A DNA stretch of 64,000 nucleotides from an uncultured Hormoscilla sp. (GTDB lineage: Bacteria; Cyanobacteriota; Cyanobacteriia; Cyanobacteriales; Desertifilaceae). The stretch spans positions 4,448,001 through 4,512,000 of the forward strand of contig OZ001293.3 of the NCBI GenBank assembly GCA_963921275.4. Reading direction: 5' to 3'. Of this stretch, positions 3,120 to 64,000 are shown one piece after another. The first letter of the stretch is position 1. Each line of letters opens with the position of its first letter. The notes beneath the pieces were generated by a model that ran no database searches, had not been told where the DNA came from, and saw only the letters and a program-made list of their open reading frames with translations. The translations under genes were made by a program, and so were the position numbers.

Positions 3120-3357
3120 GTGCGATTCGTTTAGCGTAAACTAACTTGACACAAGTCAAGGAGGGGGACCGCTACCGGGATTTCGTAAGTCCCGAGAACT
3201 TACAGGTGATGGTGGTGAAAGCCCGCCCCTCCAGGTGCAGGAGTGACAGCACCCTCCCCACGGTAGCGATGGCATCAATCCGTGAAGCGGGAAGGAAAGG
3301 CGCTATGGCTGGGAGCCTAGACCGGTCATCGTCGAGCAAGTAACTATGATGAGCGTA

Positions 3358-4191
<834 letters not shown>

Positions 4192-4554
4192 TAAGCGAAG
4201 GTTTGCAACGTCGTAAAGCCTATCCAGTGTAATAAGGCTGATACACTGGCCCAAAAAGGGAAAGGATACTGGTCATTGGCGGATGTATACCCGACCAATA
4301 AGCACTGACAATAAACCCGGCGTAGAGAACCCGTCTAAGGTTACGACCAATCATCTGTAGGAACGAAGTAACCCGGTTGTAGCACTCTCCATCACCGGTC
4401 GATAGATGGAGTAGCCACCACAGGCGTAACATCTGCTCTCCGGAAGGCAGGACGCAACTGGGGGAGATTGAGTGGAGAAGCAAATGCCTGTCTGTAATGG
4501 ATAGGATAAGCTGACGCCCTCACGGTCTCGTCAATTGTGAAGTTGTAAGTAGTA

Positions 4555-7222
4555 GTGAATATGTCACGGAACTTAGTCGAAAGACAAGAGTATGAATGGA
4601 AGACTGTCGCCTGGCGAAAGCTGGAAAGGATAGTTTTTAAGCTGCAAAAGCGAATTTACAGAGCGGCACTGGAAGGTAATAAGCAGAAGGTTCGTAAGCT
4701 CCAAGGATTACTAAATAGGTCATGGTCCGCGAAGATGATAGCGGTACGGCAGGTAACACAACAAAACCAGGGAAAGAAGACGGCTGGTGTGGATGGTGTG
4801 AAAGCACTGACCCCAAAAGAACGTATCGAACTGGTAGGTCAAATCAAAGTTACTCGAAAGGCGAAGGCAAAAGCCACACGAAGAGTGTGGATACCGAAGC
4901 CACGAAGGGAGGAGAAGCGGCCATTAGGAATACCAACGATGCACGACCGCGCACTTCAGGGATTGGTTAAAGAAGCGCTAGAGCCTGAATGGGAAGCGTA
5001 TATGGAAGCCAATTCCTACGGGTTTAGACCAGGTAGGGGATGTCATGATGCAGTTGCAGCGATATTCGCTAGCATCAGTCAAAAATCGAAATGGGTGTTA
5101 GATGCGGATATTGCGAAGTGTTTCGACGAAATTGACCATTCCGCGCTCCTAAAGAAATTGAATACTACGTCACCAATCCGTAAACAAATACGGGCATGGC
5201 TAAAAGCTGGGGTGATGGACCGGGGAAGGATGGAATCCACAGAAGCCGGAACTCCCCAAGGTGGGGTTATATCTCCATTACTAGCCAATATAGCTTTACA
5301 TGGGCTGGAAGGGGTAGTAATGGGTCTCGCTCACACAAAAAGAGAGAAGGAGAAGTTAACCGTAGTAAGATATGCGGATGACTTTGTGGTAATACATAAT
5401 GACCGGTCGATGATTGAGGAAGCTCAAGGAGTGATTGAGGAGTGGTTGAAGGGAATAGGGCTGGAGCAAAAAGCCGAGAAAACGAAGATATCCCACACAT
5501 TGGAAGGAGAGAGCCCTGGATTTGACTTCTTAGGGTTCAATATCCGACAATATAAAGTAGGGAAACACAGAAGCGGCAAACTCTGTAACGGAACCCCCCT
5601 AGGATTCAAGACCCTAATCAAGCCTAGCGATAAATCCATAAGGAATCATAAAGAGCAGCTATCAGAGATAGTTCGCCGCCATAAAGGGGCACCGCAAACG
5701 GCCTTAATAGCAAGACTAAACCCGATGATAAGGGGATGGAGCAACTATTATAGGACGGTGGTAAGTAAAGAAACTTACAGCTCTATGGATAACTACTTAT
5801 GGAAGTTGTTATGGCGATGGGCAAAGAGAAGACATCCTAACAAAACGGGCAAATGGATTGCTAGTAAGTACTGGGGTATGACCGGGAAAGACCGGTGGAG
5901 GTTCGCTGGCAAGTCTAAAGAAGATGGAGGAATGAAGCTAAACCGATACTCTGAAACTGAAATAATCGGATGGGGTCGAGCCGGGAATCGCTTCCCGACC
6001 CTCCCTTTCGGAACCGGACTTGCGATTTTCACCGCATCCGGCTACTGGGTACTAGGCCCTTTTCATAGGTAGACTTAATAGGAATTACTTCCGTTAGCCC
6101 TTGCCGCCTGTCTTTTCTTCCCTTTCCTGGTTTAGCGAGTGGTTGTTCTGATAACCGTTAGTATCACCATTTTCAAGTCAGTTTTACCAGTTATCCATAC
6201 CTTATCCTCCACTTGCGTTTCGGATTAGTTCCGTGGCTTTTTAGGATTACTCATTCCAGCAGCTTCCTAGTATCACCGACCCACGTCAGCGCTGGCTACC
6301 CAGCATCATCTACATTACTGTAGATGTTATCCCAGGAATTACCCCGGGCATTCGCTTCTTGGGCCATCCCTCCCCCCGTGGCTTGCGCTTAACATCTAAC
6401 TTGTCCTGATGGACAGCACACGAGAGGTTACTTCGTTCCCTAACAACATTTCGCGATACCTTTAGGTCCACACTATACCCCGGGAGCTATTTGAGTACTA
6501 TATTAGCCAGAGTCTAAAACTAATACTAGCTACCATTTCCTTTTTAGGCCAGCGCATATAGCCTTATTTCGCTGGTTCCTTATAACGAGGCTTGCACATG
6601 TTTGCCTGCTCTAACCTTGGATATCTTTCCTAGCGGCGTCACCGGCTTAGGCTGCCAGTTATCCTACATTTGAGTCCTCGCTTAGCACCACGATGATGTC
6701 GCTTCGTAGCACCGAGGACCGGTATCACCCCCGTACCTGGGGGGAGGGGAATTTAACCCCCATGCGGTCAGAGTTCCCGGCTAATGAAACCGGGCTAGCG
6801 TTCCGTGTTTGACCACGTTAGGCTAGAACGAATCGCACAGACACGTAAAGGTTAAGGGGACAGCTAGCCCGTTTGACGGTAATCTGGTTTATTGGAGCAA
6901 AAGACTGAGAAAAAGCCCGGATGTGAGCGCTAGAGTTATCAGACTGCTAAAAGAGCAGGATGGTAAGTGTGTGCACTGCGGACTGAAATTCAAAGATGGC
7001 GACAAATGGGAGGTTGACCATATTCTACCAGTTTCTAAAGGAGGTAAAGACTGGTATACCAACCTACAGTTGCTGCATGATTATTGCCATGATGTAAAGT
7101 CTGCCAGAGATGGTGACAAAGGCCGTATCCATGACAAGGATGGCGAAACTGAGGAGCCGGATGAGGTGAAAGTCTCACGTCCGGTTCTGAAGACGAGTCG
7201 GCGGGGTGACCCGTTGGCTTAG
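4555..7222 (+). pseudogene. Group II intron-encoded protein (RT, X, D, HNH endonuclease) interrupted by an antisense intron
   Basis: RPLGIPT, SYGFRPGR, GTPQGGVISPLLANI, RYADD, GFDFLGF, GWSNYY; after 6838 the frame resumes RHVKVKGTASPFDG...CVHCG...EVDHILP...NLQLLHDYCH. Confidence 0.95.
5968..6838 (-). mobile_element. 871-nt ORF-less group II intron, copy A (antisense inside the RT ORF)
   Basis: Reverse complement of 60792-61662; removal restores ATA ATC|AGA CAC (ETEII-RHVKVK). Confidence 0.95.
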
Positions 7223-7228
7223 TTTAAT

Positions 7229-25482: not shown

Positions 25483-26034
25483 TAGATATCGAAGGGGACG
25501 AAACTGGACAACAGTTGGTCGGGCGTCACTTTACTCACGATGCCTAAGATGCGATCGGACTCAGCAATCCCAATTATAGTATTAGTGCCCCGAGCCGACA
25601 AAGTCAAATCATAAACAGTTAATCCTCCCGTCAGTCCTATCCGATCTTCACCAACTACCAAGTCTACGACTACATCTGCTTGTCTCCTGTCAACTACATC
25701 TGCTGATGCTGACAACACAAACAGATCGCTACCATCACCGCCCAGGAGAATATCCCGACCAGCATCTCCACTAAGGGTATCGTCTCCTGCATCTCCTCGC
25801 AGCAGGTCATCTCCCCGACTGCCAAACATAATGTCACTCCCCATGCCCCCAGTCAAGGTGTCAGCACCGAGATCGGCAAAGAGGATGTCATCGCCCTGGG
25901 TACCCGTCAGATTATCATCAGAGTACGAGCCAAGGATCAGAGTCACTGTTTGTGGGGGCGCTGGCGGACCCGCGATCGCCACCGTTACGGTAGCACTGGA
26001 TGTACTACCATTAGCATCAGAAATACTATAAGTA

Positions 26035-27046: not shown

Positions 27047-28726
27047 TATAAGTAAAGCGGTCAAACCCAATGAATTCCGCTTCTGGAGTGTAAATTACCG
27101 CCGTACCACTATCATCAAGAGTGACAGTACCATTGCTAGGTTGAGTAAAGTCTTGCAGTAGGATATCCTCGTTATTGGTATCGCTGTCGTTCCCAAGCAC
27201 ATCAATGGTAATGGATTGATTTTGCTCGGTAGTAACCCGATCGGCGATCGCCAGAGGAGGGATGTTACCGAAGACAGTACTGCCGAACACCACATAGCTA
27301 GAGCCTGCACCATATGCCCCGATAATCAGGTCAGAGATGCCATCGCCGTTTACATCTCCACCACCGCTAACTAAGCTGCCAGAGAAGTCAAACGCTCCAA
27401 CACCATTGAGGACGAAGCCATTCAATCCGTTTAGTTCGCTCAAAGATAGGGTCGCTGGAAATCGATCTGCGCTCCCAAATACCACATAGCTCTTGCCCGC
27501 ATCAACAACATCTGCTCTTGATGCCCCGACGATCAAGTCATCAATGCCATCACCATTAATATCTCCCACACCGCTAACTGAGTCGCCAGAGTAGTCAAAT
27601 GCCTCAGCACCATTCAGGACGAAGCCATTGTTGCCGTCTAGGTCACTCAAAGATAGGGTTGCTGGAAATTCTTCTGACGTCCCGAATACCACATAGCTAG
27701 AGCCAGCATTGTTGCCACCTGTATCAACACCAACAGCCCCCACAATCAGATCATCTATCTCATCACCGTTGATATCTCCCGCACTACTGACTGAGCTACC
27801 TGATAAGTCATACTCATTAATGCCGTTGATGACAAAGCCATTGCTGCCGTCCAGTTCGCTCAAAGACAGCGTCCCTGGAAATCCTTCAGAACTGCCAAAC
27901 AACACATAGCTAGAGCCTACATCAAAAATCTCGCCTGCGTCAGCAAAGGGTGCCCCAATAATTAGGTCATCAATGCCATCGCTATTAATGTCTCCGGCAC
28001 TGCTAACCGCCAAACCTGATAAGTCAGAACTATTAATCCCATTCACGACGAAGCCGTTGCTGCCGTCCAGATCACTGACAGAAAGCGTCGCTAGAAATTC
28101 CTCTGAGCTGCCGAACAATATATAGCTAGCACCTGCATCAATGTTATCACCTGCTTCAGCAAAAATAGCTCCGATAATCAGGTCATCAATGCCATCGCCG
28201 TTAATATCCCCGGCACTGCTAGTTGAGAAACCTGATAAGTCACCTTCATTAATGCCAGCGATCGCGAACCCGTTGCTGCCATCCAGGTCATTCAGGTCAA
28301 GGGTCGCATCAAATACCTCATTTGAGCCAAACAGCACATAACTAGAGCCTGTATTATATATGCCGTTGGCGTCAACTCTTGGGGCCCCGATAATCAGGTC
28401 ATTGAAGCCATCGCCGTTGATATCCCCCGCACCACTAACTGAGCTGCCTAAGTTGTCACCTGCATTGATGCCAGAGATCGCGAACCCATTGCTGCCATCC
28501 AGGTTATCCAGGTCAAAGCTGGGAGGGTATTCCGACTGAGTGCCGAACAATACATAACTAGAGCCTGCCTGATAATTGCCGTTGGGGCTAGCGCCGTCTG
28601 CTCCAACAATCAAGTCATCAATGCCATCGCCGTTGATGTCTCCGGCAATGCTGACCGGGTCATAAGCATTGATGCCGGAGATAGCGAAACCATTGCTACC
28701 ATTTAAGTCAGAGAGATTGATAGATA

Positions 28727-29737
28727 ACCTAAGTTGCGACCTATTAAAAAAAATATGAATTACCCACTTAGACTTTACAGATATTTGGGATATTTCGTAG
28801 CTTTTAATACAAAATTATATTTTTTTTGTGCTAGACGGCGGGTTGGCTGTTTATAGGTTATAATGTACTAAAATAATAGTTAATTGCTGGGGGATGTAGA
28901 TGATGGAAGATATGATTACAACAATTTTTGTTCTTTGTGACGAGCTACTAAAAGCGTTAAATATAAAAGAAGATCCACAAGTAAAAATGAACAATGCCGA
29001 AGTGATGACAGTCGGATTAGTTGCTGCATATTTTTTCGGAGGACACCACGATCGCTCTTGTCAATTTATGGTCCAACACAAGTATATAAAAAATCTGTTA
29101 AGTAAAAGTAGGTTCAATCGTCGATTACACAATATTGAGGAACCAATTTGGATGTTTTTCTTTCAAGTTATAGCTCAAACATTTAAAGAGCTCAATCCGG
29201 GTCAAGAATATATTCTTGATAGTTTCCCGGTGCCAGTATGTGATAATATTAGGATTGATAGATGCCAAATTTATAACAAGGAAGAATATCGAGGCTATAT
29301 TGCCAGTAAAAAACGTTATTTTTATGGATTAAGAGTTCATATGTTGGTAAACAAAAATGGAAAGCCAATAGAATTTATCTAGATCCTGGTAGTTATAATG
29401 ATTTTAAAGTTTTGCAATCTTTTGGCTTTGACTTACCATCAAATTCAATAGTTTATGGAGATAAAGCTTATAATGATTATCAATTAGAGGATTTACTAAA
29501 AGAGTCGTCAAGTATAATGTTAAAACCTTTGCGAAAAAAAAACTCAAAAAGAAAAGAATATTCTTGTTTTGAATATATACAAAAAGTAACAAGAAAACAA
29601 GTTGAAACCTGTTTTAGTCAAATCACCAATTTGTTTCCCAAGTCAATTCATGCTGTTACATTTAAAAGATTAGAGTTGAAAATAATTCTCTTTATCATAG
29701 CTTTTTGTATCCAATTTTTATAGGTCGCAACTTGAGT
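28727..29737 (+). mobile_element. IS982 family element, frameshifted transposase
   Basis: Same ends; duplication TAGATA; 1-bp deletion near 29375 splits the ORF. Confidence 0.93.
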
Positions 29738-30367
29738 TAGATACTGGCGCTACGGTTACGTTGACATTCACTGTCGCAGTAGCAGTGTCACTCCCGTCCG
29801 AGATCGAGTAAGTAAAGCTGTCATCGCCAAGGAAACCAATGTCCGGGGTGTAAATCAACTTGTCATCGGTCAGATCGTCCGGGGTGCCGCCGTCATCGCG
29901 CGTCACCGTACCGTTGCTAGCAGTGCCAAAGTCTACAAGTAAGATGGGGTCGCTATTGTCATCTCCGTCGTTGATGAGAACGTCGATCGTCACAGGCGTA
30001 TTTTGTGTGGGGTTGGCACGATCGGTCATCCAGGCGATCGCCATTTATATCCCCAGCACCACTGACTGCGAACCCTGAGTTATCGCGCTCATTAATACCG
30101 TTAATAGCGAAGCCATTGCTGCCATCTAGTTCTGAAAGATTTAGAGATATGATGCCCATTGCGAATTTTTCCTTGCTAATCTTTGCTATTATCCTACAAA
30201 AACTAATTTACCACACGCTGCGCTGTTTTTGGGAAGTTACCTGAGTAACGATACCCAAGATTATATCAGACTCAGCAATGCGGATCCCAATTCCAGAATC
30301 AGATATTCCTCAACACCGGTAATATCTACGACCGATCTACTCACAATTATCATAGAAACGGAAGAGT

Positions 30368-30726
30368 CGTGCTCAGACACAGAGTATTCGTACTCAGACT
30401 TCGTGCTCAGGCATAGAGTATTCGTGCTCAGACACAGAATATTCGTACTCAGACACAGAGTATTCGTGCTCAGACACAGAATATTCGTGCTCAGACACAG
30501 AGTATTCGTGCTCAGACACAGAATATTCGTACTCAGACACAGAATATTCGTGCTCAGACACAGAGTATTCGTGCTCAGACACAGAGTATTCGTGCTCAGA
30601 CACAGAGTATTCGTGCTCAGACACAGAGTATTCGTGCTCAGACACAGAGTATTCGTGCTCAGACACAGAGTATTCGTGCTCAGACACAGAGTATTTGTGC
30701 TCAGACACAGAGTATTCGTGCTCAGG
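30368..30726. repeat. 21-bp tandem repeat array (~16 units)
   Basis: Unit CGTGCTCAGACACAGAGTATT with minor variants and no spacers. Confidence 0.95.
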
Positions 30727-31091
30727 CGTCGTGTAGGGCCGGTAGATATAAAAGACCGCTTTTCAGCAAGTGATTCATTTCGTATACGAATCGTAGACGA
30801 AGAAAGCCAGCGTCGGAGGAAACCTGCTGGGGTATGAGGTTGCGAAATATGGGTTAAATTGAAAGACACCCAACTCCGACGGTATAGTAGCAAATAAATT
30901 TGATAATTTCCGTAAAATATGTTTTAATGACTGTAGTTAAAGCAGGAAATGTTACCAATGTCGCCGGTAACCAACACTTGAGTTATAATAGACAAACGTG
31001 CGACTCGTTCCCGCGTAAGTCGGAAATATGACGATAGTCGGGCTAGTATTACACCAGCATTTTTACAGAAAAATACAAGAGAAACCAAAAA

Positions 31092-34000
31092 ATGAAGCAT
31101 AATACCAATGCCAACACCATGGTATTAGTGGATGCCTCCCTAGAAAACTACCAGCAGCTTATAGACGGCATCCGGCCTGGGGCCAAATCTTTCCTCTTAG
31201 ACCTTCGGTCCGATGGCATCAAACAGATCGGCGAACTTCTCCGCCTCTACCCTGCAGAAGTGGAAAGTAAAACAACTCCTACTCTACGGCTGTAACGTCG
31301 CCGCCGGAGATGCAGGAAAGGAGTTGATGACTAAGCTACAGGCCCTGACCGGGGCATCCCTCGCCGCCTCTACTACCCGGACAGGGGCAGCAGCCCGGGG
31401 CGGAAATTGGAAGTTGGAGTGGCGAACTCCGGGGATGAAAACTCCCTTAGCATTGTCCGCAGAAGCTCAGATGGCCTATGGGGGCATATTGACCATCTCC
31501 CAGCAGGAGTATCAGGCCTTAAGGGCTCTCTATCAAAGCACCAATGGGGCTTTTTGGAGTAACAATACAGGCTGGCGGGACTGGAATTTCAACAGCCCAA
31601 CTCCCCCCGATGCTTCTGTTGTTAATGGTTGGCATGGAGTGACGGTAACTAACAACAGGGTGATTAGGCTCCGGCTGGACTTCAACGGACTGACTGACAG
31701 CATCCCGACGGAGTTAGGGAATCTTTCCAATTTGGTGCAGCTCTTCCTGAACTCCAACCAACTGACTGGCAGCATCCCGACGGAGTTAGGGAATCTTTTC
31801 AATTTGGAGGAGCTCGAGCTGTACTCCAACCAACTGACTGGCAGCATTCCGAAGGAGTTAGGAAATCTTTCCAATTTGGAGGAGCTCTGGCTGGACTCCA
31901 ACCAACTGACTGGCAGCATCCCGAAGGAGCTAGGGAATCTTTCTAATTTGCAACTTCTCTTGCTGAACTCTAACCAACTGACTGGCAGCATCCCGAAGGA
32001 GTTAGGGAATCTTTCCAATTTGGAGAATCTCCGGCTGTTCTCCAACCAACTGACTGGCAGCATCCCGACGGAGCTAGGGAATCTTTCCAATTTGGAGGAG
32101 CTCGAGCTGTACTCCAACCAACTGACTGGCAGCATCCCGAAGGAGTTAGGGAATCTTTCCAATTTGCAACTTCTCCAGTCGTAGGGACTTTGTCTACTAC
32201 CGACCCCGACGAGGGAGATAGCTTTACCTACATGCTTGGATCGGGCAACAATGCCTTTACTATAGTAGGGGACCAACTGCTAACTAACAGTTCTTTGGAC
32301 TTTGAGACTCAGTCCAGTTACAGCATCCGCGTCCAGACTACTGACTCTGCTAATAACAGTTATTCGGAGGTCTTGACTATTAACGTGAATGATGTTCCCG
32401 AACCTCCTACCTCCATAGTCTTTAGCAGCAGCAGCATCAACGAAAACTCTCCATTGGGTGCAGTCGTAGGGACTTTGTCTACTACTGACCCCGACGAGGG
32501 AGATAGCTTTACCTACATGCTTGGATCGGGCAACAATGCCTTTACTATAGTAGGGGACCAACTGCTAACTAACAGTTCTTTGGACTTTGAGACTCAGTCC
32601 AGTTACAGCATCCGCGTCCAGACTACTGACTCTGCTAGTAATAGTTTTGAGGAGGTCTTGACTATTAATGTGAATGATGTCGGCGAGTCTCCTACCGACC
32701 TAGTCCTTAGCAACAGCAGCATTGATGAAAACTCTCCATTGGGTGCAGTCGTAGGGACTTTGTCTACTACCGACCCCGACGAGGGAGATAGCTTTACCTA
32801 CATGCTTGGATCGGGCAACAATGCTTTTACTATAGTAGGGGACCAACTGCTAACTAACAGTTCTTTGGACTTTGAGACTCAGTCCAGTTACAGCATCTGC
32901 GTCCAGACTACTGATGCTGGTGGGCTTAGTTACTCGGAGGCTTTTACTATTAATGTCAACGATGTCAACGAGTCTCCTACCGATCTAGTCCTTAGCAACA
33001 GCAGCATTGATGAAAACTCTCCTGATAATGCAGTCGTAGGGACTTTTTCAACTACCGACGAAGATAATGGAGATACCTTTACCTACCAGTTAGTCGGAGG
33101 CGACGATGCCTTTACTATAGTAGGGGACCAACTGCTAACTAACAGTTCTTTAGACTTTGAGACTCAGTCCAGTTACAGCTTCCGCGTCCAGACTACTGAT
33201 GCTGGTGGGCTTAGTTACTCGGAAGCCTTGACTATTAGCGTCAACAATGTCAACGAGTCTCCGACCTCCATAGTCCTTAGCAACAGCAGCATTGATGAAA
33301 ACTCTCCATTGGGTGCAGTCGTAGGGACTTTGTCTACTACCGACCCCGACGAGGGAGATAGCTTTACCTACATGCTTGGATCGGGCAACAATGCCTTTAC
33401 TATAGTAGGGGACCAACTGCTAACTAACAGTTCTTTGGACTTTGAGACTCAGTCCAGTTACAGCCTCCGCGTCCAGACTACTGACTCTGCTAGTAATAGT
33501 TTTGAGGAGGTCTTGACTATTAATGTTATTGATGAAGCAGAGAATTCTTCTCCTACCGATATAGTTCTTAGCAGCAGTAGTATTGATGAAAATTCTCCAT
33601 TGGGTGCAGTTGTGGGGACTTTCTCTACTACTGACCCCGACGAAGGAGATAGCTTTACCTACATGCTTGGATCGGGCAACAATGCCTTTACTATAGTAGG
33701 GGACCAACTGCTAACTAACAGTTCCCCTGACTTTGAGACCCAGTCCAGTTACAGCATCCGCGTCCAGACTACTGACTCTACTGGGAACAGTTACTCAGAA
33801 GCCTTGACTATTAGCGTCATTGATGTTCCCGAACCTCCGACCTCCATAGTCCTTAGCAACAGCAGCATTGATTCTAACTCCCCTGATAATGCAGTCGTAG
33901 GGACTTTCTCAACTACCGATCCTGACTCTTCCGATCCCTTTACCTACCAGTTAGTCACAGGCGACGGTGCCGATGATAACGACGCCTTCACCATAGAAGG

Positions 34001-36850
34001 GAACTCACTGCTAACTAACAGTTCCCCTGACTTTGAGACCCAGTCCAGTTACAGCATCCGCGTCCAGACTACTGACTCTACTGGGAACAGTTACTCAGAA
34101 GCCTTGACTATTAGCGTCATTGATGTTGCTGTAGAGAACTCCGATCCTATCGATATCGACCTCAGCAACAGCAGCATTGATGAAAACGTCTAAGTCAATA
34201 CTGTCGTAGGGACTTTCTCAACTACCGACCCTGACATTGGAGATACCTTTACCTACCGGTTAGTCGGAGGCGCTGGTGCCGATGATAACGCCGCTTTCAC
34301 CATAGTAGGGGACCAATTGCGAATTAATAGTTCTCCGGACTTTGAGACTCAGTCGAGTTACCTCATCCGCGTCCAAACTACCGACTCTGTTGGGGCCAGT
34401 CGCGAGGAGGCCTTCATGATTAACGTCAATGATGTTGCCGAGTTTCCTACCGACCTAGTTCTCAGCAACAATAGCATTAATGAAGACTCTCCATTGGGTG
34501 CAGTTGTGGGGACTTTCTCTACTGCTGATCCTGACGATGAAGATAGCTTTACCTACGAGTTAGTCTTCGGCAACAATGCTTTTACTATAGTAGGGGACCA
34601 ACTGCTAACTAACAGTTCTTTGGACTTTGAGACTCAGTCCAGTTACAGCCTCCGCGTCCAGACTACTGACTCTGCTAGTAATAGTTTTGAGGAGGTCTTG
34701 ACTATTAATGTCAACGATGTCGGCGAGTCTCCTACCGACCTAGTCCTTAGCAGCAGCAGCATTGATGAAAACTCTCCATTGGGTGCAGTTGTGGGAACTT
34801 TCTCTACTACTGACCCCGACGAGGGAGATAGCTTTACCTACATGCTTGTCTCCGGCAACAATGCCTTTACTATAGTAGGGGACCAACTGCTAACTAACAG
34901 TTCTTTGGACTTTGAGACTCAGTCCAGTTACAGCCTCCGCGTCCAGACTACTGACTCTGCTAGTAATAGTTTTGAGGAGGTCTTGACTATTAATGTTATT
35001 GATGAAGCAGAGAATTCTTCTCCTACTGATATAATTCTTAGCAGCAGCAGCATCAACGAAAACTCTCCATTGGGTGCAGTTGTGGGGACTTTGTCTACTA
35101 CTGACCCCGACGAGGGAGATAGCTTTACCTACATGCTTGTCTCCGGCAACAATGCCTTTACTATAGTAGGGGACCAACTGCTAACTAACAGTTCTTTGGA
35201 CTTTGAGACTCAGTCCAGTTACAGCCTCCGCGTCCAGACTACTGACTCTGCTAGTAATAGTTTTGAGGAGGTCTTGACTATTAACGTGAATGATGTTGCA
35301 GAGAATTCTTCTCCTACCTCCATAGTCCTTAGCAGCAGCAGCATCAACGAAAACTCTCCATTGGGTGCAGTTGTGGGGACTTTGTCTACTACTGACCCCG
35401 ACGAGGGAGATAGCTTTACCTACATGCTTGTCTCCGGCAACAATGCCTTTACTATAGTAGGGGACCAACTGCTAACTAACAGTTCTTTGGACTTTGAGAC
35501 TCAGTCCAGTTACAGCCTCCGCGTCCAGACTACTGACTCTGCTAGTAATAGTTTTGAGGAGGTCTTGACTATTAACGTGAATGATGTTGCAGAGAATTCT
35601 TCTCCTACCTCCATAGTCCTTAGCAGCAGCAGCATCAACGAAAACTCTCCATTGGGTGCAGTTGTGGGGACTTTGTCTACTAGCGATCCCGACGAGGGAG
35701 ATAGCTTTACCTACATGCTTGTCTCGGGCAACAATGCCTTCACCATAGTAGGGAACCAACTGCGAATTAACAGTTCCCCTGACTTTGAGACTCAGTCCAG
35801 TTACAGCCTCCGCGTCCAGACTACTGACTCAACTGGGGCCAGTTACTCGGAGGTCTTGATTATTAACGTCAACGATGTCGGCGAGTCTCCTACCGACCTA
35901 GTCCTTAGTAGCAGCAACATCAATGAAGATTCCCTATTGGGTGCAGTCGTGGAACTTTGTCTACTACCGATCCCGATAATGGAGATACTTTTACTTACCA
36001 GTTAGTCTCGGGCGACGGTGACGATGATAATGCTGCTTTCACTATAGTGGGGGACCAACTGCGAATTAACAGTTCTCCGGATTTTGAGACTCAGGAGATT
36101 TACAGGATATTCGTTCAGACTACCGACTCGACTGGGAAAAGTTACTCGGAGGCTTTGATTATTAATGTGAACAATGTTGCTGAGTCTCCTACTGATATAG
36201 TTCTTAGTAATGGCAGCATCAATTCTAATTCCCGCGCGGGTGCGATCGTGGGGACTTTCGGAACTAGCGATCCGGACGGGGGAAATACTTTTACCTATGG
36301 GTTAATCTCTGGTTTTGGTGACGATGATAACGCTGCTTTCACTATAGTAGGGGACCAACTGCTAATTAATAGTTCTCCGGCTTTGGAGATGAGGTCGAGT
36401 TACAGCATCCGCGTTCAGACTACTGACGTTACTGGGGCCAGTTACTCGGAGGCTTTGATTATTAATGTGAACGATGTTGCCGAATCTTTTACTGACCTTA
36501 ACTTCAGCAATACTCGTCAACCCCTAACTCTCAACCCCCAACCCCTAACTTTATCACTCTTTGAGAAGGAGGAGGAGGACACTCTGATCGGCGGGGAGGG
36601 AAGCGATCGCTTCTACGGAAACCATGGAAGCGATCGTCTCTACGAAGGATCAGAGGCCAATATTTTTGTTCTGGAGTCGGACATGATGGGTACTATCATA
36701 GACTTTGAAGATTATACGGACTTTATCAGGCTAGCAGGAGGTTCTCAGGGCCTCGATACCTGGATTAATTTTGAATCGAAAACCATGGCCACCCTGCAGG
36801 GGATTGATGAGACCCTGATTAATGTCGATGATTTCACTGTGGTTAATTGA
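31092..36850 (+). pseudogene. Giant surface protein: DUF4347-like, 7 LRRs, ~15 cadherin-like repeats, RTX-like tail; disrupted
   Basis: LLLYGCNVAAG...GGNWKLE; NQLTGSIPxELGNLSN; STTDPDEGDSFTY...LDFETQSSYSIRVQTTD; breaks at ~31255, ~32180, TAA 34191-34193 and ~35955. Confidence 0.88.
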
Positions 36851-42808: not shown

Positions 42809-43690
42809 GTGATGAAAACTGCATGGGTGTTTCCCGGACAAGGTTCCCAAGAAGTAGGTATGGGAGTGGACTTAAAAGATATACCAGCTGCTAAAGAAAA
42901 ATTCGAGAAAGCTGAGCAAATTTTAGGTTTGTCGATCCTAAAACTATGCCAAAGTGACAAAGAAAAGCTATCTCGGACTCTATATACTCAGCCTTGCATT
43001 TATGCGATCGAAAGCATTCTGGCTGATTTGATGCGGTCCCAGGGACATGAACCTGATTTGGTTGCAGGTCACAGTCTGGGAGAATATGTGGCTCTCTATA
43101 CGGCGGGTGTGTTTGATTTTGTCACGGGATTAAAGCTGGTCTATGAGCGTGCAAAACTGATGGATAGTGCTGCGGGTGGTAAGATGATGGGGTTAATGGG
43201 GTTCTCACGCTCCGAGTTGGAAGCCGCAATCTCACAAACCCCGGATGTGGTGTTAGCGAATGACAATAGTGCGGCTCAAGTGGTGATTTCTGGTACGGAT
43301 GCTGCGGTGGAAACGGTGATAGTCCAGGTGAAGGTGAAACGTGCTGTGCCATTAAAGGTCTCGGGTGCCTTTCATTCTCCGTTAATGGCACCCGTGGCGA
43401 CTGAGTTTCAGCAACTTTTGGAGTCGGTTTCCTTTGCTGATGCTCGAGTACCGGTACTATCTAACGTGGAACCGGTGCCAGCAACAGCGGCAGCCGTGTT
43501 GAAACAGCGTCTGAAACAGCAGATAACGGGTTCGGTGCGGTGGCGGGAAATCTGCCTGCAATTACCCCAGTCCGGAATTGAGCGAGTGGTGGAAATTGGA
43601 CCAGGTAAGGTGCTTACGGGTCTGATTAAACGCACTTGTGCCGAATTGCTCTTAGAAAATGTCAGCGGTCTTGCTGATTTGCCAAGTTAA
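42809..43690 (+). CDS. fabD: Malonyl-CoA:ACP transacylase
   Basis: FPGQGSQ, GHSLGEY, VSGAFHS, EIGPGKVL. Confidence 0.97.
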   Translation: MMKTAWVFPGQGSQEVGMGVDLKDIPAAKEKFEKAEQILGLSILKLCQSDKEKLSRTLYTQPCIYAIESILADLMRSQGHEPDLVAGHSLGEYVALYTAGVFDFVTGLKLVYERAKLMDSAAGGKMMGLMGFSRSELEAAISQTPDVVLANDNSAAQVVISGTDAAVETVIVQVKVKRAVPLKVSGAFHSPLMAPVATEFQQLLESVSFADARVPVLSNVEPVPATAAAVLKQRLKQQITGSVRWREICLQLPQSGIERVVEIGPGKVLTGLIKRTCAELLLENVSGLADLPS

Positions 43691-43718: not shown

Positions 43719-44589
43719 GGATGGGGTCGAGCCGGGAATCGCTTCCCGACCCTCCCTTTCGGAACCGGACTTGCGATTTTCACCGCATCCGGCTACTGGG
43801 TACTAGGCCCTTTTCATAGGTAGACTTAATAGGAATTACTTCCGTTAGCCCTTGCCGCCTGTCTTTTCTTCCCTTTCCTGGTTTAGCGAGTGGTTGTTCT
43901 GATAACCGTTAGTATCACCATTTTCAAGTCAGTTTTACCAGTTATCCATACCTTATCCTCCACTTGCGTTTCGGATTAGTTCCGTGGCTTTTTAGGATTA
44001 CTCATTCCAGCAGCTTCCTAGTATCACCGACCCACGTCAGCGCTGGCTACCCAGCATCATCTACATTACTGTAGATGTTATCCCAGGAATTACCCCGGGC
44101 ATTCGCTTCTTGGGCCATCCCTCCCCCCGTGGCTTGCGCTTAACATCTAACTTGTCCTGATGGACAGCACACGAGAGGTTACTTCGTTCCCTAACAACAT
44201 TTCGCGATACCTTTAGGTCCACACTATACCCCGGGAGCTATTTGAGTACTATATTAGCCAGAGTCTAAAACTAATACTAGCTACCATTTCCTTTTTAGGC
44301 CAGCGCATATAGCCTTATTTCGCTGGTTCCTTATAACGAGGCTTGCACATGTTTGCCTGCTCTAACCTTGGATATCTTTCCTAGCGGCGTCACCGGCTTA
44401 GGCTGCCAGTTATCCTACATTTGAGTCCTCGCTTAGCACCACGATGATGTCGCTTCGTAGCACCGAGGACCGGTGTCACCCCCGTACCTGGGGGGAGGGG
44501 AATTTAACCCCCATGCGGTCAGAGTTCCCGGCTAATGAAACCGGGCTAGCGTTCCGTGTTTGACCACGTTAGGCTAGAACGAATCGCAC
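43719..44589 (-). mobile_element. 871-nt ORF-less group II intron, copy B (intergenic)
   Basis: Near-identical to copies A and C; 5' exon TTTCTTGAGTCT. Confidence 0.95.
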
Positions 44590-44645: not shown

Positions 44646-45368
44646 ATGAAGAAGGCAATTTACTGGTTAATGGGCGAAAAGGCTGGACGCACCATAGTCG
44701 GGACTTGGAACTGGCTGTGGGGTATCCCAGTGGAACAAGGCGGCAAGGTCGCTGTGGCAACCGCTGAAGAATCATTGCAGTCGATGCAGGAGTCGGTGCA
44801 AAAGCTGGCAAAGGCGGTGGCGACTCAGGTGGCAGCCTACGAACGGGCAAAGCAAAAGTATCAGGAGAAGGTAAAGGAATTACAGAATGCAGAAAATCAA
44901 GCGGCGATCGCCCAACGTTCTGGTAACTCAGAGGCGGCGCGGATGGCGATGGCGAAGGTGCTGCAAGTGGAGAAATTGCTGCCGCAGTTGGAATCTCAGG
45001 TGAAACAGGCGGAACAGTATGTCAATGCTTCTAAGGATAAGCTGAATCGCGAACGGATGAAGATCGAAGAGTATAAGGCCCAAATGCAAAATATGAAAGA
45101 CCTGGCGGAAATTAACGAAGCCCTGGGGGCGATCGCCAAGGTGAACAACGAGTTTGATATCGGTAGCGCCCGCTCGCAGTTTGAAACCGCCAAAAATGCT
45201 GTGGAACGCCGCAACCTGCAAGAAAGCGCTATTGCAGAATTGTCAGAGAACTCAGCGGAGAAGCTCCAGGCTGAGTTGGAACAAATGACCGCAGACGATG
45301 AAATAGCTCGTAGGCTCCAAATACTGGAAGGTTTCAGTCCTCGACAACTACCTGAAGGAGAAAACTAA
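44646..45368 (+). CDS. PspA/IM30 family coiled-coil protein
   Basis: Long heptad helices, AIAQRSGNSEAARMAM, C-terminal DDEIARRL. Confidence 0.75.
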   Translation: MKKAIYWLMGEKAGRTIVGTWNWLWGIPVEQGGKVAVATAEESLQSMQESVQKLAKAVATQVAAYERAKQKYQEKVKELQNAENQAAIAQRSGNSEAARMAMAKVLQVEKLLPQLESQVKQAEQYVNASKDKLNRERMKIEEYKAQMQNMKDLAEINEALGAIAKVNNEFDIGSARSQFETAKNAVERRNLQESAIAELSENSAEKLQAELEQMTADDEIARRLQILEGFSPRQLPEGEN

Positions 45369-47044: not shown

Positions 47045-48905
47045 TTAAATTTTATATTTGACCACTTTCGCTGGCACAAGTTCGGAAGGATTACTGGGAG
47101 ATTTTATCTTTTGCGATGCTATCTTGAACCCAGTCATTGATATTTTTTCCAACTCTTCCCTGCTTGCCATCGGAATTTTCCGATACTTACTCTCGGGAAT
47201 TATGGCAATAAGTTGAAAGTTTGCTGATGCGTCATAACCTAGGTCAATGTAGTTATAAACATTCAGCGGATTTTCTATCCCCCACATCCCCCTGATTCTC
47301 AAGTATGTTATCCCCATTGGGTCTACTTTATTGACTCTTCCTAGTTCCTTCGTTTCTGAAAACTCTACATCGGGTATTTCTGTAATCTCATTGGCGATCG
47401 TCCTCTTCAGCCTTTGATAAGTCTCCTTTTCGGCCACATAACAATTCCCATAAATCAACCACAGCAATTTTAATTGCTTCTTTTCCACACAGCCTATTGT
47501 ATAGATTATATCTTTTTCTGTCCAATCTTCACCACAAGACTTCGTTATCGTGGGATTATCTGGCAATAGCTTTGATTTTGGATAAGAACTATTTAACTCA
47601 AGTTGCGACCTATAAAAATTGGATACAAAAAGCTATGATAAAGAGAATTATTTTCAACTCTAATCCCTTAGATGTAACAGCATGAATTGACTTGGGAAAC
47701 AAATTGGTGATTCAACTAAAACAGGTTTCAACTTGTTTTCTTGTTACTTTTTATATATATTCAAAACAAGAATATTCTTTTCTTTTTGAGTTCTTTTTTC
47801 GCAAAGGTTTTAACATTATACTTGACGACTCTTTTAGTAAATCCTCTAATTGATAATCATTATAAGCTTTATCTCCATAAACTATTGAATTTGATGGTAA
47901 GTCAAAGCCAAAAGATTGCAAAACTTTAACATCATTATAACTACCAGGATCTAGATAAAATTCTATTGGCTTTCTATTTTTGTTTACCAACATATGAACT
48001 CTTAATCCATAAAAATAACGTTTTTTACTGGCAATATACCCTCGATATTTTTCCTTGTTATAAATTTGGCATCTATCAATCCTAATATTATCACATACTG
48101 GCACCGGGAAACTATCAAGAATATATTCTTGGCCCGGATTGAGCTCTTTAAATGTTTGAGCTATAACTTGGAAGAAAAACATCCAAATTGGTTCGTCAAT
48201 ATTGTGTAATCGACGATTGAACCTACTTTTACTTAACAGATTTTTTATATACTTGTGTTGGACCATAAATTGACAAGAGCGATCGTGGTGTCCTCCGAAA
48301 AAATATGCAGCAACTAATCCGACTGTCATCACTTCGGCATTGTTCATTTTTACTTGTGGATCTTCTTTTATATTTAACGCTTTTAGTAGCTCGTCACAAA
48401 GAACAAAAATTGTTGTAATCATATCTTCCATCATCTACATCCCCCAGCAATTAACTATTATTTTAGTACATTATAACCTATAAACAGCCAACCCGCCGTC
48501 TAGCACAAAAAAAATATAATTTTGTATCAAAAGCTACGAAATATCCCAAATATCTGTAAAGTCTAAGTGGGTAATTCATATTTTTTTTAATAGGTCGCAA
48601 CTTAGGTTATTTAAGGCAATTTTCGTTCTGAGTGACTCAATTTTCTTAATCTCTACTGCATCTCCCTTTTTCAAGATTATATCTGGCGGGTTATTATGAT
48701 TGCCTTGATAGTCAAACACCTCACTATATGCTTCTACCCGCTTTTGCTCATTTTCCTCATTGATGGTATCGGCAAAAGCATCCTTTATAAATACCCCTAA
48801 AGCGCTGCCCACACCGTTGATGCTGCTTTTGCCTTTGTAGTGACCTAGTAAGTCTGTGACTGGATTGTTAACTATTGTCTTGATCGCTTGTAGTATGTTT
48901 GTCAT
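47045..48905 (-). pseudogene. NgoPII-family type II restriction endonuclease interrupted by IS982
   Basis: YQGNHNNPPDIILKKGDAVEIKKIES...IALN|SSYPKSKL...ETKELGRVNKVDPMGITYLRIRGMWGIENP. Confidence 0.85.
47596..48607 (-). mobile_element. IS982 family element with premature stop
   Basis: Same ends; duplication TATTTA; CAA>TAA at 47751-47753. Confidence 0.93.
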
Positions 48906-52016: not shown

Positions 52017-52100
52017 GTTAGGGGTCGAGCTGGGAATCGCTTCGGAACCCTCCCATTCGGAACCTGAAGAGCGACTTTCACCGCACACGGCTACTGGGTA
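52017..52100 (-). mobile_element. 84-nt 3' fragment (domains V-VI) of a group II intron
   Basis: Minus strand TACCCAGTAGCCGTGTGCGGTGAAAGTCGC...CTCGACCCCTAAC. Confidence 0.85.
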
Positions 52101-55624: not shown

Positions 55625-56272
55625 CTGCGGGCTTGTGGGTTTATGCTGTAGAGGCACATGAAGTTAGCTCACCTCCAGGAGTAGAACCGATTAATTGGCG
55701 GTTATTAACCACCCATGAGGTCCTTTGCCTCGAACAAGCTCTGCAAGTCATTCAATGGTATTGCTGGGCCCAGAGAGCAACTCTTTGCCACTGTTAAAAC
55801 AGCCGGGTTAAATATTGAAGCCACTCAACTCGAATCGATAGAAGCTATTAAACGCTCTTCGCATTTTGGCCTTATCGGTCGCTGTGCGGACCCTACAACA
55901 GGTCCTTGGGCGAGATAACCCAGCTCTACCTGCTGGAGTTGCTTTCTCTAATCAGCAACCTGAGGGGGCGACATGAGCCCTCAAAAGCTTACTAGATAAG
56001 GCTTTGAGGCCAATAGGTTCGGACAAGATACAGTCGCATCAGTACCATCCTTTCATTTTCATGAAGCTCAAACCCTTTATAACTACGTCGTCTGTCTGCC
56101 CAAAACAGCATGTATCTTGTTGAAGCTTATGGGCTGAAATTCTTACGCTCGTATGGATTTCAGCAGGCATGTCGCCCCCCCAGATCAGCAACAACAATGT
56201 CTCGAACAACTTGCACCTTCCTTGGAAGGACGGACTTCATGGAGAGCAAAACCCTTACCCCCTAGCTTCTTT
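55625..56272 (+). mobile_element. IS4 family transposase remnant
   Basis: PPGVEPINWRLLTTHEV...QVIQWYC...EQLFATVKTAGLNIEATQL; ends approximate. Confidence 0.75.
55960..56183. mobile_element. 224-bp MITE, copy 2
   Basis: Same family as 52618-52840; 9-bp duplication ATCAGCAAC. Confidence 0.9.
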
Positions 56273-56975
56273 GTCGGGTAAGAGAGGACACGTCACCGTG
56301 CCTCCCTCCCCTAAGAACCGGACTTGACAGTTTCCCATCATCCGGCTCAAGCCTCTAAACCTCAGAATGTTTACCTTGACCGTTCTGGGTTGCACGATAT
56401 ATTCTCTGTCTCAGGTTTCTAACAGGCTTCAACACGAGTTTCCAATCAATGGACCCCCAGTCTAAAGAGCGTTCCTTCATTCCGATGTCATTGCTGACCC
56501 TATCTTTCATGTCGGTTCGATTCCTTTACAAGTTTTCTATCGTTGGAGACCTGCTGAAGTCTGCCATCTTTCGATGTAGGGCAAATCTTGAACCCCTATC
56601 CCTAGCATTACCAAGGGCTTTCGCTTTTTCTAGCATCCTTTACCCTCTAGGTAGTTCCGTCTTCCTTAGGGTTGACCTACTCATATCATCGACCTGACCT
56701 GAGAACCTATAGGGTTTACCCTGTTCCGTACATTTAACCTTCAACCGATTCGGATTCCACCTATATTCCGGTGAGGATTTTGCTCTCTCGTTATTAGCCC
56801 AAGGTACTGCTAATAACTTACTCACTTGCCTTTTGGCTAGACTGTATCAGCCTTATTTCACTCTTCAGACATAACGGAATTTGCAGTGATTCACAAATGT
56901 TAACCCTTTTCGGTTTTCCCCTTGCCCTTTTGCCGATTTCGGCTCTCAGTCGGAGGGCTTTCATGCCTTGCATTC
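56273..56975 (-). mobile_element. Group II intron with almost fully deleted IEP, 5' part missing
   Basis: Domain V GAGCCGGATGATGGGAAACTGTCAAGTCCGGTTC, end CTTACCCGAC; residual 41-aa ORF 56355-56480 [34 protein letters not shown]. Confidence 0.85.
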
Positions 56976-57356
56976 ATTAGGGGTCGAGCTGTCCCTCGCG
57001 GGACAACCCTCCCGTTCGGAACCGTGCATGCGACTTTCACCGCACACGGCTACTGGGTACCAGGCCCTTTTCATGGGTAGGATTACTGGGGATTACTCCC
57101 GTTGTCCCTTACTACTTGCATGTTTGCCCCTTTCCTGGTTGGTGAGTGGCGCTGCCAGAAAACCTTTAGGATCACCATTTACACATCCGTTTTACCAGTA
57201 ATACATTCCGAAATCCTCAACTCGCTTGCGCTGACGCTGTGGACGGGCTTATGACATTTTAAGGCTACTTATATCAGTAGTTTCCTGATATCACCGACCC
57301 GCGTCAGCGTATCCGTGGGCATTACCCCAGGCATTAGCTTCTCGGGCCATCTTTCC
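56976..57356 (-). mobile_element. ORF-less group II intron (domains III-VI) nested in the preceding intron, 5'-truncated
   Basis: TAGCCGTGTGCGGTGAAAGTCGCATGCACGGTTC, end CTCGACCCCTAAT; homologous to the 871-nt family. Confidence 0.85.
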
Positions 57357-60783: not shown

Positions 60784-62227
60784 ATGTCTCTGTGCGATTC
60801 GTTCTAGCCTAACGTGGTCAAACACGGAACGCTAGCCCGGTTTCATTAGCCGGGAACTCTGACCGCATGGGGGTTAAATTCCCCTCCCCCCAGGTACGGG
60901 GGTGACACCGGTCCTCGGTGCTACGAAGCGACATCATCGTGGTGCTAAGCGAGGACTCAAATGTAGGATAACTGGCAGCCTAAGCCGGTGACGCCGCTAG
61001 GAAAGATATCCAAGGTTAGAGCAGGCAAACATGTGCAAGCCTCGTTATAAGGAACCAGCGAAATAAGGCTATATGCGCTGGCCTAAAAAGGAAATGGTAG
61101 CTAGTATTAGTTTTAGACTCTGGCTAATATAGTACTCAAATAGCTCCCGGGGTATAGTGTGGACCTAAAGGTATCGCGAAATGTTGTTAGGGAACGAAGT
61201 AACCTCTCGTGTGCTGTCCATCAGGACAAGTTAGATGTTAAGCGCAAGCCACGGGGGGAGGGATGGCCCAAGAAGCGAATGCCCGGGGTAATTCCTGGGA
61301 TAACATCTACAGTAATGTAGATGATGCTGGGTAGCCAGCGCTGACGTGGGTCGGTGATACTAGGAAGCTGCTGGAATGAGTAATCCTAAAAAGCCACGGA
61401 ACTAATCCGAAACGCAAGTGGAGGATAAGGTATGGATAACTGGTAAAACTGACTTGAAAATGGTGATACTAACGGTTATCAGAACAACCACTCGCTAAAC
61501 CAGGAAAGGGAAGAAAAGACAGGCGGCAAGGGCTAACGGAAGTAATTCCTATTAAGTCTACCTATGAAAAGGGCCTAGTACCCAGTAGCCGGATGCGGTG
61601 AAAATCGCAAGTCCGGTTCCGAAAGGGAGGGTCGGGAAGCGATTCCCGGCTCGACCCCATCCAACCATTGCCGACCTAGAACAACTCCAAACCCAATTGG
61701 CTGATGCCCATCTTGATTACAAGATGGAATTAGTCGATGGTAAAATTATCATTATGGGACTTTCAGATTATCTTTCTGAAGAAATCATCGCTCGATTAAT
61801 CACTTTTCTCAATATCTGGATACTTCCCCGCAAGTTGGGACGAGTCACTGGTTCTTCTGCTGGCTTCAGACTGCCCGATGGCAACTTGCGCGGACCTGAT
61901 GTCTCTTTTGTCCCCGCTGAGAAAATGCGTCAATCTCCTAGGAGTTTTGCGGAAATTGTACCAGACTTGATGTTTGAAGTTAGGTCTTCTACAGATAATG
62001 TTAGACCACTATTACAGAAAATCCAGAGATTTATCGAATTGGGGACGCAAGTTGGCATATTTGTAGACCCCAAAAATTTGACCGTAACTGTTTATCGTCC
62101 TACTGCCGAACCTATTCTGCTCAAAGATGATGATATCTTAACTATACCCGAATTCTTGCCCGGTTGGGAATTGCCCATTGACCAAATCTGGCCTCCAGTT
62201 TTTGCACCAGAAAATATTCAACCGTAA
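60784..62227 (+). CDS. Uma2 family endonuclease split by a sense group II intron (exons 60784-60791 and 61663-62227)
   Basis: ATG TCT CT|A ACC ATT gives MSLTIADLEQLQ...MELVDGKI...GPDVSFV...VPDLMFEVRS. Confidence 0.88.
60792..61662 (+). mobile_element. 871-nt ORF-less group II intron, copy C
   Basis: GTGCGATTCG start; EBS1 hairpin loop AGACTC at 61115-61120; domain V TAGCCGGATGCGGTGAAAATCGCAAGTCCGGTTC; end CTCGACCCCATCC. Confidence 0.95.
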
Positions 62228-62381: not shown

Positions 62382-63210
62382 TTATGAATCTTTCCTGACT
62401 TTAACAATGGGCATGTCTTCAGGTGCGATCTCCTGGAACCCTAACTTCTTCAGTTTATTGAGGGCTTTTTCTGCTGGAGAATTATCTTCTTCCGCTGGTG
62501 CAACCGCCGCTGTTTCCCAAGTCTGGACGAGTTCAGCTAAGGCGTATTCTAATTGCGCCCCCGGATCTAATGTTACCCAACCTTCGGAGGTCAGTTCCCG
62601 CAGTTCAAAGTGCAGGTGCGGTCCTGTGGAATAGCCGCTGCTGCCCACACTGCCGATTATACTGCCTTGCTTGACTTCTTCTCCAGGTTGGACGAAGATT
62701 TCTGATAGGTGCGCGTACAGGGTTTGTTGAAGGGGTTTCTCTGGTTGGGCATGTTCTAGCACAACTGATAACCCATAGCCTTTCAGGGCGTCCGCGATTG
62801 CGACTTTTCCGGCCAATGCTGCTAACACTGGGGTCCCCGATATCCGTGCCGTGGTGGAACTGTTCCGATCCTGAGATCGGATGGGTCCGCCAACCAAACA
62901 AGGAAGTAATCGGTGAGGGAATTGATAAGGGAAAGATGATGCTATCATTGCCACGATCGGGACGGAGGTTGGGTCGAATCAGCTGATAGTAACTGCGACC
63001 TATGGGCGTTGCATCCCCATATTCGATCTCACTGGGACTGTAACTTGCTGGTCCGAGATTTACTTCCCCCCCTGGTGATTTTTGGCCTTGGCAAGGCCCG
63101 CTGATGCTGCGGCCTCCATACCGGGATGGGAGCTGATTTGGGACGCCAAACCGGTGGCTGGTAACTTGTCCTGGATCTTACGGTCACTGGTGCTGGTGGC
63201 GGGCGGAGCC
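62382..63210 (-). pseudogene. M23 family peptidase, frameshifted and interrupted by an intron
   Basis: FGWRTHPISG..FHHGTDIG (one frame) then TPVLAA...TLYAHLS...GYSTGPHLHFE (another frame). Confidence 0.85.
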
Positions 63211-63821
63211 ACATCGCCGTGGTGCTAAGCGAGGACTCAAATGTAGGATAGCTGGTAGCCTAAACCGGTGACTCCGCGCTTGTTAGATGCCCAAGGTTAG
63301 AATAAGCGAACCTATGTAAACTTCGTAAATGGGAACCGGCGAAATAAGGCTTTATGCGCCGGAGACAAAAGTCAATGTAGTTAGTGTTAGTTTTGTACTT
63401 TGGCTAACATCGTACTCGGATAACTACCGGAGGAAAGTAGGGGCCTAAAGGTATCGTGAAATGATATCAGGGAACGAAGTAACCTCTCGTGAGCTGTCCT
63501 CATATGGACAAGTTAGATGTAAAGCGCAAGCCACGAGGGGAGAGATGGCCCAAGAAGCTAATGCCTGGCGGTGTCTGGAGCATGCCGTATCCCTTGCGGG
63601 AGCGCCAGCCGTTCGCGGCAGCGCGGCGCCAGCCGTGTCCTTCAGGACAAGAGCATGCGGAAGACGCCGGGTAATTCCTATGGATATGCTGACGTGGGTC
63701 GGTGATAGATAGAATCTTTGGGTGAAAGTAGCCTTAAATGTTCTAGACCAGGAGAAATCCTAGGTAGTTAATTTTGGACTAAAGACCTAACCGGGTAAAA
63801 CTTGGAGAACCTAGTAAATTA
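63211..63821 (+). mobile_element. ORF-less-family group II intron, 5'-truncated, interrupted by IS982
   Basis: CGTGGTGCTAAGCGAGGACTCAAATGTAGGATA and GGGAACGAAGTAACCTCTCGTG shared with copy C; no GTGCG start; 3' end not in window. Confidence 0.85.
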
Positions 63822-64000
63822 ACTCAAGTTGCGACCTATAAAAATTGGATACAAAAAGCTATGATAAAGAGAATTATTTTCAACTCTAATCCCTTAGATG
63901 TAACAGCATGAATTGACTTGGGAAACAAATTTGTGATTCGACTAAAACAGGTTTCAACTTGTTTTCTTGTTACTTTTTGTATATATTCAAAACAAGAATA
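63822..64000 (-). mobile_element. IS982 family element (partial, runs off the window)
   Basis: ACTCAAGTTGCGACCTATAAAAATTGG matches the other copies. Confidence 0.92.

Follow-up and report, generated by a model that had tools for sequence, protein, structure and literature searches.

Three near-identical copies of an ORF-less group II intron in 64 kb of a Hormoscilla genome: a likely case of recent spread with a borrowed reverse transcriptase

An 871-nt element that occurs three times in the window, by which I mean the whole stretch of 64,000 nucleotides analysed here, is an ORF-less group II intron. From the near-identity of the copies, their exact boundaries and the genes they interrupt, I consider it likely that this intron has spread recently and that it is retromobile by way of a reverse transcriptase (RT) borrowed in trans. 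Two of its details are unusual: it terminates in CC where AY would be expected, and one copy lies antisense inside an RT gene of the helper type.

Three copies of one ribozyme

The copies were compared by MAFFT alignment with 50-nt flanks and by direct base-by-base comparison.

5968-6838, minus strand: copy A, 871 nt, within a larger intron's RT gene, on the antisense strand
43719-44589, minus strand: copy B, 871 nt, intergenic, antisense to both flanking genes
60792-61662, plus strand: copy C, 871 nt, within codon 3 of a Uma2 gene and oriented as that gene is

Over the full 871 nt, B and C do not differ at all, and copy A differs from both by a single substitution at intron position 115, which is U in A and C in B and C (window positions 6724, 44475 and 60906 for A, B and C). 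This position lies in a predicted G-C pair, and the change in copy A would leave a G-U pair. An initial annotation of this DNA had described three copies of one length that differ by one substitution in A (GGTATCACC versus GGTGTCACC), with neither a protein ORF nor a target duplication. Alignment and direct comparison return the same length and exactly the same coordinates for all three copies, and the substitution it read by eye is the one at position 115. Its other two statements also hold: the longest stop-to-stop frame on either strand of the element is 58 codons, tblastn with three RT paralogues matched the element only in a short stretch overlapping domain V (domain IV gave no ORF remnant in this search), and direct comparison of the flanks found no flanking direct repeats at any of the three copies. 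The absence of a target duplication is what reverse splicing would leave, for it yields exactly that.

Apart from three upstream bases, TCT, that are common to all, the flanks of A, B and C are unrelated, and thus the element is a dispersed repeat and not part of a segmental duplication. A blastn search of a plasmid collection gave no match to it. Scanning genome contigs with a 26-nt pattern from its 5' end gave at least one further locus, L001, in a Hormoscilla MAG; this is a 5' fragment that is 77% identical to the 871-nt intron and has no domain V within 3 kb.

Each copy begins with GUGCG (at 60792 in C, and on the minus strand at 44589 in B and 6838 in A), which fits the GUGYG expected at the 5' boundary, and each scores 46.4 bits with the Rfam model of domains V-VI (RF00029, gathering score 40). 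Domain V of group II introns is about 34 nt long, carries an AGC triad, a 2-nt bulge and a GNRA loop, and is followed by domain VI. The parts of copy C and of the gene around it are placed as follows.

60784..60791, plus strand: Uma2 exon 1 (ATGTCTCT)
61012..61018, plus strand: EBS2 candidate (a), AAGGUUA, intron positions 221-227, complementary to exon positions -16..-10
61047..61052, plus strand: EBS2 candidate (b), AUAAGG, intron positions 256-261, in a variable unpaired stretch
61115..61120, plus strand: EBS1, AGACUC at intron positions 324-329, in a hairpin loop whose stem covaries
61587..61618, plus strand: domain V, with AGC triad, 2-nt bulge and GAAA loop, from Rfam alignments
61654, plus strand: predicted branch-point A, bulged in domain VI, from the consensus fold and the Rfam alignment
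61661..61662, plus strand: non-canonical 3' terminus CC, from empty-site comparison at two loci
61663-62227, plus strand: Uma2 exon 2

Consensus folding, which took in the relatives R1 (3358-4191), R2 (56976-57351, minus strand) and R3 (63204-63707) as well as locus L001, gave 109 pairs in domain I, 27 of them with compensatory changes, and 93 pairs in domains II-VI, 28 of them with compensatory changes. Domain V has two compensatory pairs among three relatives. The predicted branch A stands 9 nt from the 3' end; in the consensus fold a G-A (columns 405-406) is left unpaired on the 3' side of the domain VI helix. Folded as a single sequence, the intron is more stable than its shuffles (MFE z-score -5.8). 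Taken together, the GUGCG start, domain V, domain VI with its predicted bulged A, the covarying helices and the lack of an ORF identify the element as a group II intron without an ORF. Its resemblance is to the IIB/chloroplast-like lineage, of which the introns of Thermosynechococcus elongatus have been studied best; the class name (IIB1, chloroplast-like class 1, with EcI5 and TeI4h) is a lead, not a result, and the best match among the D1-D4 class models, group-II-D1D4-2, reaches only 22 bits with a threshold of 36.

Canonical bacterial group II introns run from 5' GUGYG to AY 3', as PMC4424553 gives their boundaries. The 871-nt unit is like them in its 5' GUGCG, its domain V, the predicted bulged A of its domain VI and its EBS1-IBS1 pairing, but it ends in CC rather than AY. 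More exactly, the mobile unit ends in ...GACCCCAUCC / ...CCCCAUCC, that is, after ...AUCC, and the canonical AU lies 2 nt upstream of this end, at 61660, which is as far as the Rfam model reaches. A length of 869 nt, up to that AU, was considered and rejected, as it leaves both host ORFs out of frame. Only a length of 871 nt restores both, and the end is therefore placed after CC; the junction residues, Arg in the RT and Leu in Uma2, are both conserved and exclude other placements of an 871-nt unit. The tail of relative R2 has the same length and ends in AU.

As a separate observation, relatives R2 and R4 both read ...CCCCUAA(U) at the place that matches the CC end of the 871-nt unit (61661-61662).

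Host genes, empty sites and target recognition

Copy A sits in a larger intron that has a gene of its own for an intron-encoded protein (IEP), and copy B sits between two genes.

3120..7228, plus strand: ORF-containing group II intron hosting copy A, a 4.1-kb composite that splits a DUF6391 gene in frame
3358-4191, plus strand: R1, a full-length diverged ORF-less relative, 73% identical to copy C, in domain I of the 3120-7228 intron
4555-5967 and 6839-7222, plus strand: the two IEP pieces of the 3120-7228 intron (RVT_N, RVT_1, GIIM, HNH)
42809-43690 and 44646-45368: fabD-like and PspA/IM30-like neighbours of copy B, which is antisense to both

Excision of 871 nt from the copy A site gives an RT ORF of 598 codons, whereas excision of 869 nt leaves the frame broken. 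The restored junction, SETEII-RHVKVKG, is that of the RT paralogue P0002 (SETEIIRHTKVKG), with no residue gained or lost. In 27 of the 31 fetched RT homologues the protein runs on across this site, 3 others end before reaching it, and a single one, the window's own, is interrupted there, between the maturase (X) domain and the D/HNH domains. At copy C, removal of the 871 nt brings the ATG at 60784 into frame with a protein that begins MSLTIADLEQ. All six uninterrupted Uma2 homologues that were fetched begin MSLT(I/V)ADLE, and they include those of Hormoscilla sp. GM102CHS1 (95%) and SP12CHS1 (100%, both identities over the aligned part). Because removal of the 871 nt restores two host genes, and because Uma2 is intact in relatives within Hormoscilla, the insertions in the RT and Uma2 genes are real and precise, and they are probably young. 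Copy B is separated by 28 nt from the fabD-like ORF on one side and by 56 nt from the PspA/IM30-family ORF on the other.

Two other accounts of the copies bear on this conclusion. The first is that they are an artefact of assembly or duplication, or were moved at the DNA level by some other recombination route. Assemblers can misplace repeats of this length, although nothing specific to these copies speaks for such an error. Each copy has unique flanks, excision at the exact boundaries restores two independent host frames to the residue, a TCT/G pattern complementary to EBS1 stands at all sites, and the window's own proteins are found on a contig of 6.88 Mb (6,879,066 bp); I give this account almost no credence. 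The second is that the insertions are old and that gene conversion among the dispersed copies has kept them nearly identical. Recombination substrates are plentiful in the window, where other repeat families (IS copies) are 98-99% identical, and three copies alone cannot date a burst. However, proteins of named Hormoscilla MAGs that are 95-100% identical have no insertion at the Uma2 site, 8 listed paralogues attributed to the same genome have none at the RT site, and the diverged relatives in the same window (73-81% identity) have not been homogenised, all of which makes maintenance by gene conversion very improbable.

The sites chosen by the intron can be compared with the parts of the ribozyme that would recognise them. 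EBS1 pairs with the last 6 nt of the 5' exon at 5/6 positions for A, 6/6 for B and 4/6 for C, the two mismatches of C being adjacent, and not one of 300 random triples of window sites reached this pairing total with any intron hexamer. The stem of the EBS1 hairpin has compensatory changes at 4 pairs and covaries in four relatives. In L001 the homologous loop, ACCAUU, pairs 5/6 with the 5' exon of that locus, which is an independent check on the assignment of EBS1.

The second recognition element has two candidates. Candidate (a) pairs 7/7 at A, 6/7 at C and 3.5/7 at B, and 3 of 300 random triples do as well; its core is itself paired in the consensus fold, where columns 224-227 covary with 373-376, and its assignment is accordingly uncertain. 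Candidate (b), whose pairings were read by hand, has a counterpart in L001, UGUUG, that pairs 5/5 with exon positions -13..-9, and in the three copies it pairs 4/5 (A), 3/5 (C) and 2.5/5 (B), so that it fits site A alone well. The UAAC that the sites have in common at -16..-13 may equally be read by protein. When the 122,724 sites of the intron-free window are ranked by EBS1 together with candidate (a), A comes 1st, C 47th and B 112th; both elements had been picked from these very sites, which inflates the ranks. None of the insertion sites is perfect at both EBS1 and EBS2, which fits dispersal to near-cognate sites.

The motif CCUAAAGG was also considered as EBS2 and was rejected because relatives with different targets have kept it.

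The three targets had initially been described as unrelated. As genes they are (an RT gene, an intergenic site and Uma2), but as sequences they are not, since an IBS1-type match and a distal 5'-exon motif are common to them. Judged by these matches, the three sites appear to have an RNA-guided recognition motif in common.

Proposed route of spread and the helper reverse transcriptases

In the route proposed here, a copy transcribed in the sense direction would be spliced with the help of an IEP encoded at another place in the genome by a related intron that has an ORF. Once excised, the particle of lariat and IEP would find DNA by base pairing with the 5' exon, to which the EBS1 loop and a second element would contribute; the intron RNA would reverse-splice into that DNA, and the borrowed RT would copy the intron. 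The outcome would be a precise insertion without target duplication. All three copies would have arisen recently in this way, at sites that match imperfectly: one antisense in an IEP gene, one intergenic and one at the start of Uma2. Reverse splicing and cDNA synthesis with a borrowed RT is the route that PMC2882425 reports as demonstrated for ORF-less introns of T. elongatus. Copies A and B, being antisense to local transcription, have probably come to a dead end. Copy C, which runs in the direction of Uma2, could be spliceable; its IBS1 pairing is the weakest of the three.

The initial annotation had gone further and called the element a non-autonomous, SINE-like retroelement in current expansion, on the ground that ORF-less introns can be mobilised in trans by the RT of another intron. 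That ground is documented (PMC2882425 and PMC4424553), and the recent spread of an ORF-less element in need of an RT in trans agrees with what was found. 'Current expansion', on the other hand, is more than can be drawn from three copies, two of which are antisense to their surroundings. One might go to the opposite position and suppose that the burst is over, the family having been mobile recently and its present copies being inert relics. Two of the three copies are indeed antisense to the genes around them, promoter-like sites near copies B and C are no commoner than in shuffles (the promoter and terminator scans there, with counts at or below shuffle level, are uninformative in themselves), copy C pairs just 4/6 with EBS1, and the only RT gene of the window is itself split by copy A. 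Against this, B equals C over 871 nt and the one change in A leaves a predicted G-U pair, full-length RT paralogues attributed to the same genome are listed, and better-placed donor copies may exist outside the window. I regard a finished burst as unlikely.

Help in trans for the 871-nt intron is plausible. At least 11 related RT protein clusters, among 120 listed, are inferred to come from the same genome, as their contig has the length (6,879,066 bp) recorded for that of the window's own protein, and they include three full-length RT clusters with HNH (P0002, P0021 and P0053). The nearest named relatives among the matches listed are Hormoscilla MAGs, at 78-79% identity. One related IEP-encoding intron of this genome is the 3120-7228 intron of the window, and the others are presumed from these clusters. 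The closest solved relative of the window IEP is the TeI4h IEP of T. elongatus (6ME0 chain C, E 1.9e-95).

The 3120-7228 intron falls between positions 1-86 and 92-134 of the DUF6391 Pfam domain. Beyond domain V it has little RNA sequence in common with the 871-nt intron. R1, nested within it in sense orientation, makes it a twintron. Copy A is on the opposite strand, so that it does not form a twintron of the same-orientation kind, and it cannot be spliced from the transcript of the outer intron. A DNA similarity between the 871-nt intron and the start of the outer intron's ORF, considered as a possible ORF remnant in domain IV, was rejected as not significant (local alignment score 23; shuffles had a mean of 18.8 and a maximum of 28). 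As an observation on the outer intron itself, its IEP reading frame continues through domains V and VI.

Among targets in the window, the best match falls on the antisense strand of the codons for the conserved RH(V/T)KVKG motif, where the D/En region begins in this IEP family. This raises a further reading, in which the 871-nt intron is a hyperparasite of its own helpers, by preference disabling IEP genes from the antisense strand, and its family splices at a 3' site that lies 2 nt beyond the canonical AY. I hold this to be unlikely. One further hint in its direction comes from P0062, an RT paralogue outside the window that is attributed to the same genome. Right after its HNH motif, DKWEVDHI, P0062 ends in about 21 residues, and this tail matches the 871-nt intron when its antisense strand is translated, at about positions 448-510 (67% identity, E 5e-4). 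It would be a second case of antisense ORF-less intron sequence in an IEP gene. If such antisense hits were systematic, ORF-less introns would throttle the pool of IEPs on which they depend.

Comparison with known introns and other features of the window

The closest precedent is the ORF-less TeI3 introns of T. elongatus BP-1, for which mobilisation in trans by the IEPs of related introns was shown experimentally (Mohr, Ghanem & Lambowitz 2010, PMC2882425). Like the intron described here, the TeI3 introns of that account are cyanobacterial, ORF-less and a few hundred nucleotides long, and they have identical or nearly identical copies at several sites with EBS/IBS complementarity. They also coexist with related ORF-containing introns, some of their copies are inside other introns, and it is to TeI4h that the window IEP is closest among solved structures. 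Unlike them, so far as that account describes them, the 871-nt intron has no detectable ORF remnants flanking a domain IV deletion, copy A is antisense in the D/En part of an RT gene whereas the TeI3 counterpart inside another intron has the sense orientation and lies between the first two ATGs, the terminal bases are CC and not AY, the host is mesophilic (Hormoscilla-like), and mobility here is deduced from sequence.

Two other systems are comparable in part. Nested group II introns of Methanosarcina acetivorans home into the ORFs of related introns (Dai & Zimmerly 2003, as described in PMC4424553); in that description, too, introns with and without an ORF are found together, and the sites of insertion lie in other group II introns. 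The M. acetivorans arrays, however, are archaeal and nested and arise by repeated site-specific homing, whereas there is one antisense insertion here and 27 of the 31 homologous RT genes examined are unoccupied. Trichodesmium has a cyanobacterial genome with many group II introns and a twintron (PMC4649490). The latter is an intron within an intron, as is R1 (3358-4191) inside the 3120-7228 intron; unlike the twintron presented in that source, copies A-C concern the dispersal of a non-autonomous intron and not sequential splicing.

Surveys such as that of PMC8919778 already record ORF-less introns, and very numerous introns of the CL type, in Cyanobacteriota. A literature search found no report joining Hormoscilla and group II introns, and the papers it gave for Hormoscilla and reverse transcriptase are, by title, unrelated. 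Trans-mobilised ORF-less introns are already known, and the 871-nt intron would work like the TeI3 family and opens no new category. T. elongatus, as PMC2882425 presents it, is one well-studied case of ORF-less intron proliferation. To this the window adds a clean mesophilic example from a Hormoscilla-like cyanobacterium, in which the boundaries are exact, EBS1 is defined and the empty site could be reconstructed at two loci. Older diverged relatives, a twintron in sense orientation and intron fragments occur in these 64 kb as well, which makes them useful material for the study of how non-autonomous introns spread, decay and interact with their helpers. The CC 3' end and the antisense hit on the RT gene are small oddities that can be tested.

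Three intron fragments of the same lineage are present in the window besides the full-length copies. A second composite, at 56273-57351 (minus strand), has the 3' half of an R1-like ORF-less intron (57351-56976), which is followed by part of another intron, with apparent first codons of an RT ORF (by eye) and then a domain V/VI of its own at 56273-56350 (RF00029, 58.5 bits). The whole has the look of a twintron in decay. At 52018-52100 (minus strand), a domain V/VI fragment that stands alone is 85% identical to the 3' end of the 871-nt intron, scores below the Rfam gathering score and overlaps the 3' end of a DUF3747 gene. R3, at 63204-63707 (plus strand), is a partial relative with 81% identity over positions 133-495, and its domain II is enlarged by an insert of about 100 nt; it is followed by the beginning of an IS copy (63817-64000).

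Other repeats in the window are unconnected with the introns. A gene for an NgoPII-type restriction endonuclease (47045-48905, minus strand) is split, with Pfam positions 1-99 and 109-262 on either side, by an IS with a DDE transposase at 47590-48613, and further copies of this IS, at 98-99% identity, lie at 26033-27049 and 28721-29743. Long in-frame tandem repeats occupy 30337-30788, 31596-32243 and 32118-36480, with 21-nt units, 72-nt LRR units and cadherin-domain units of 285-291 nt, the last of which span three adjacent ORFs; the repeats suggest one very large, possibly broken, surface-protein gene. Finally, positions 857-887 in the flank of L001 match window positions 55978-56008 exactly over 31 nt, away from the introns, and this match is probably a short dispersed repeat.
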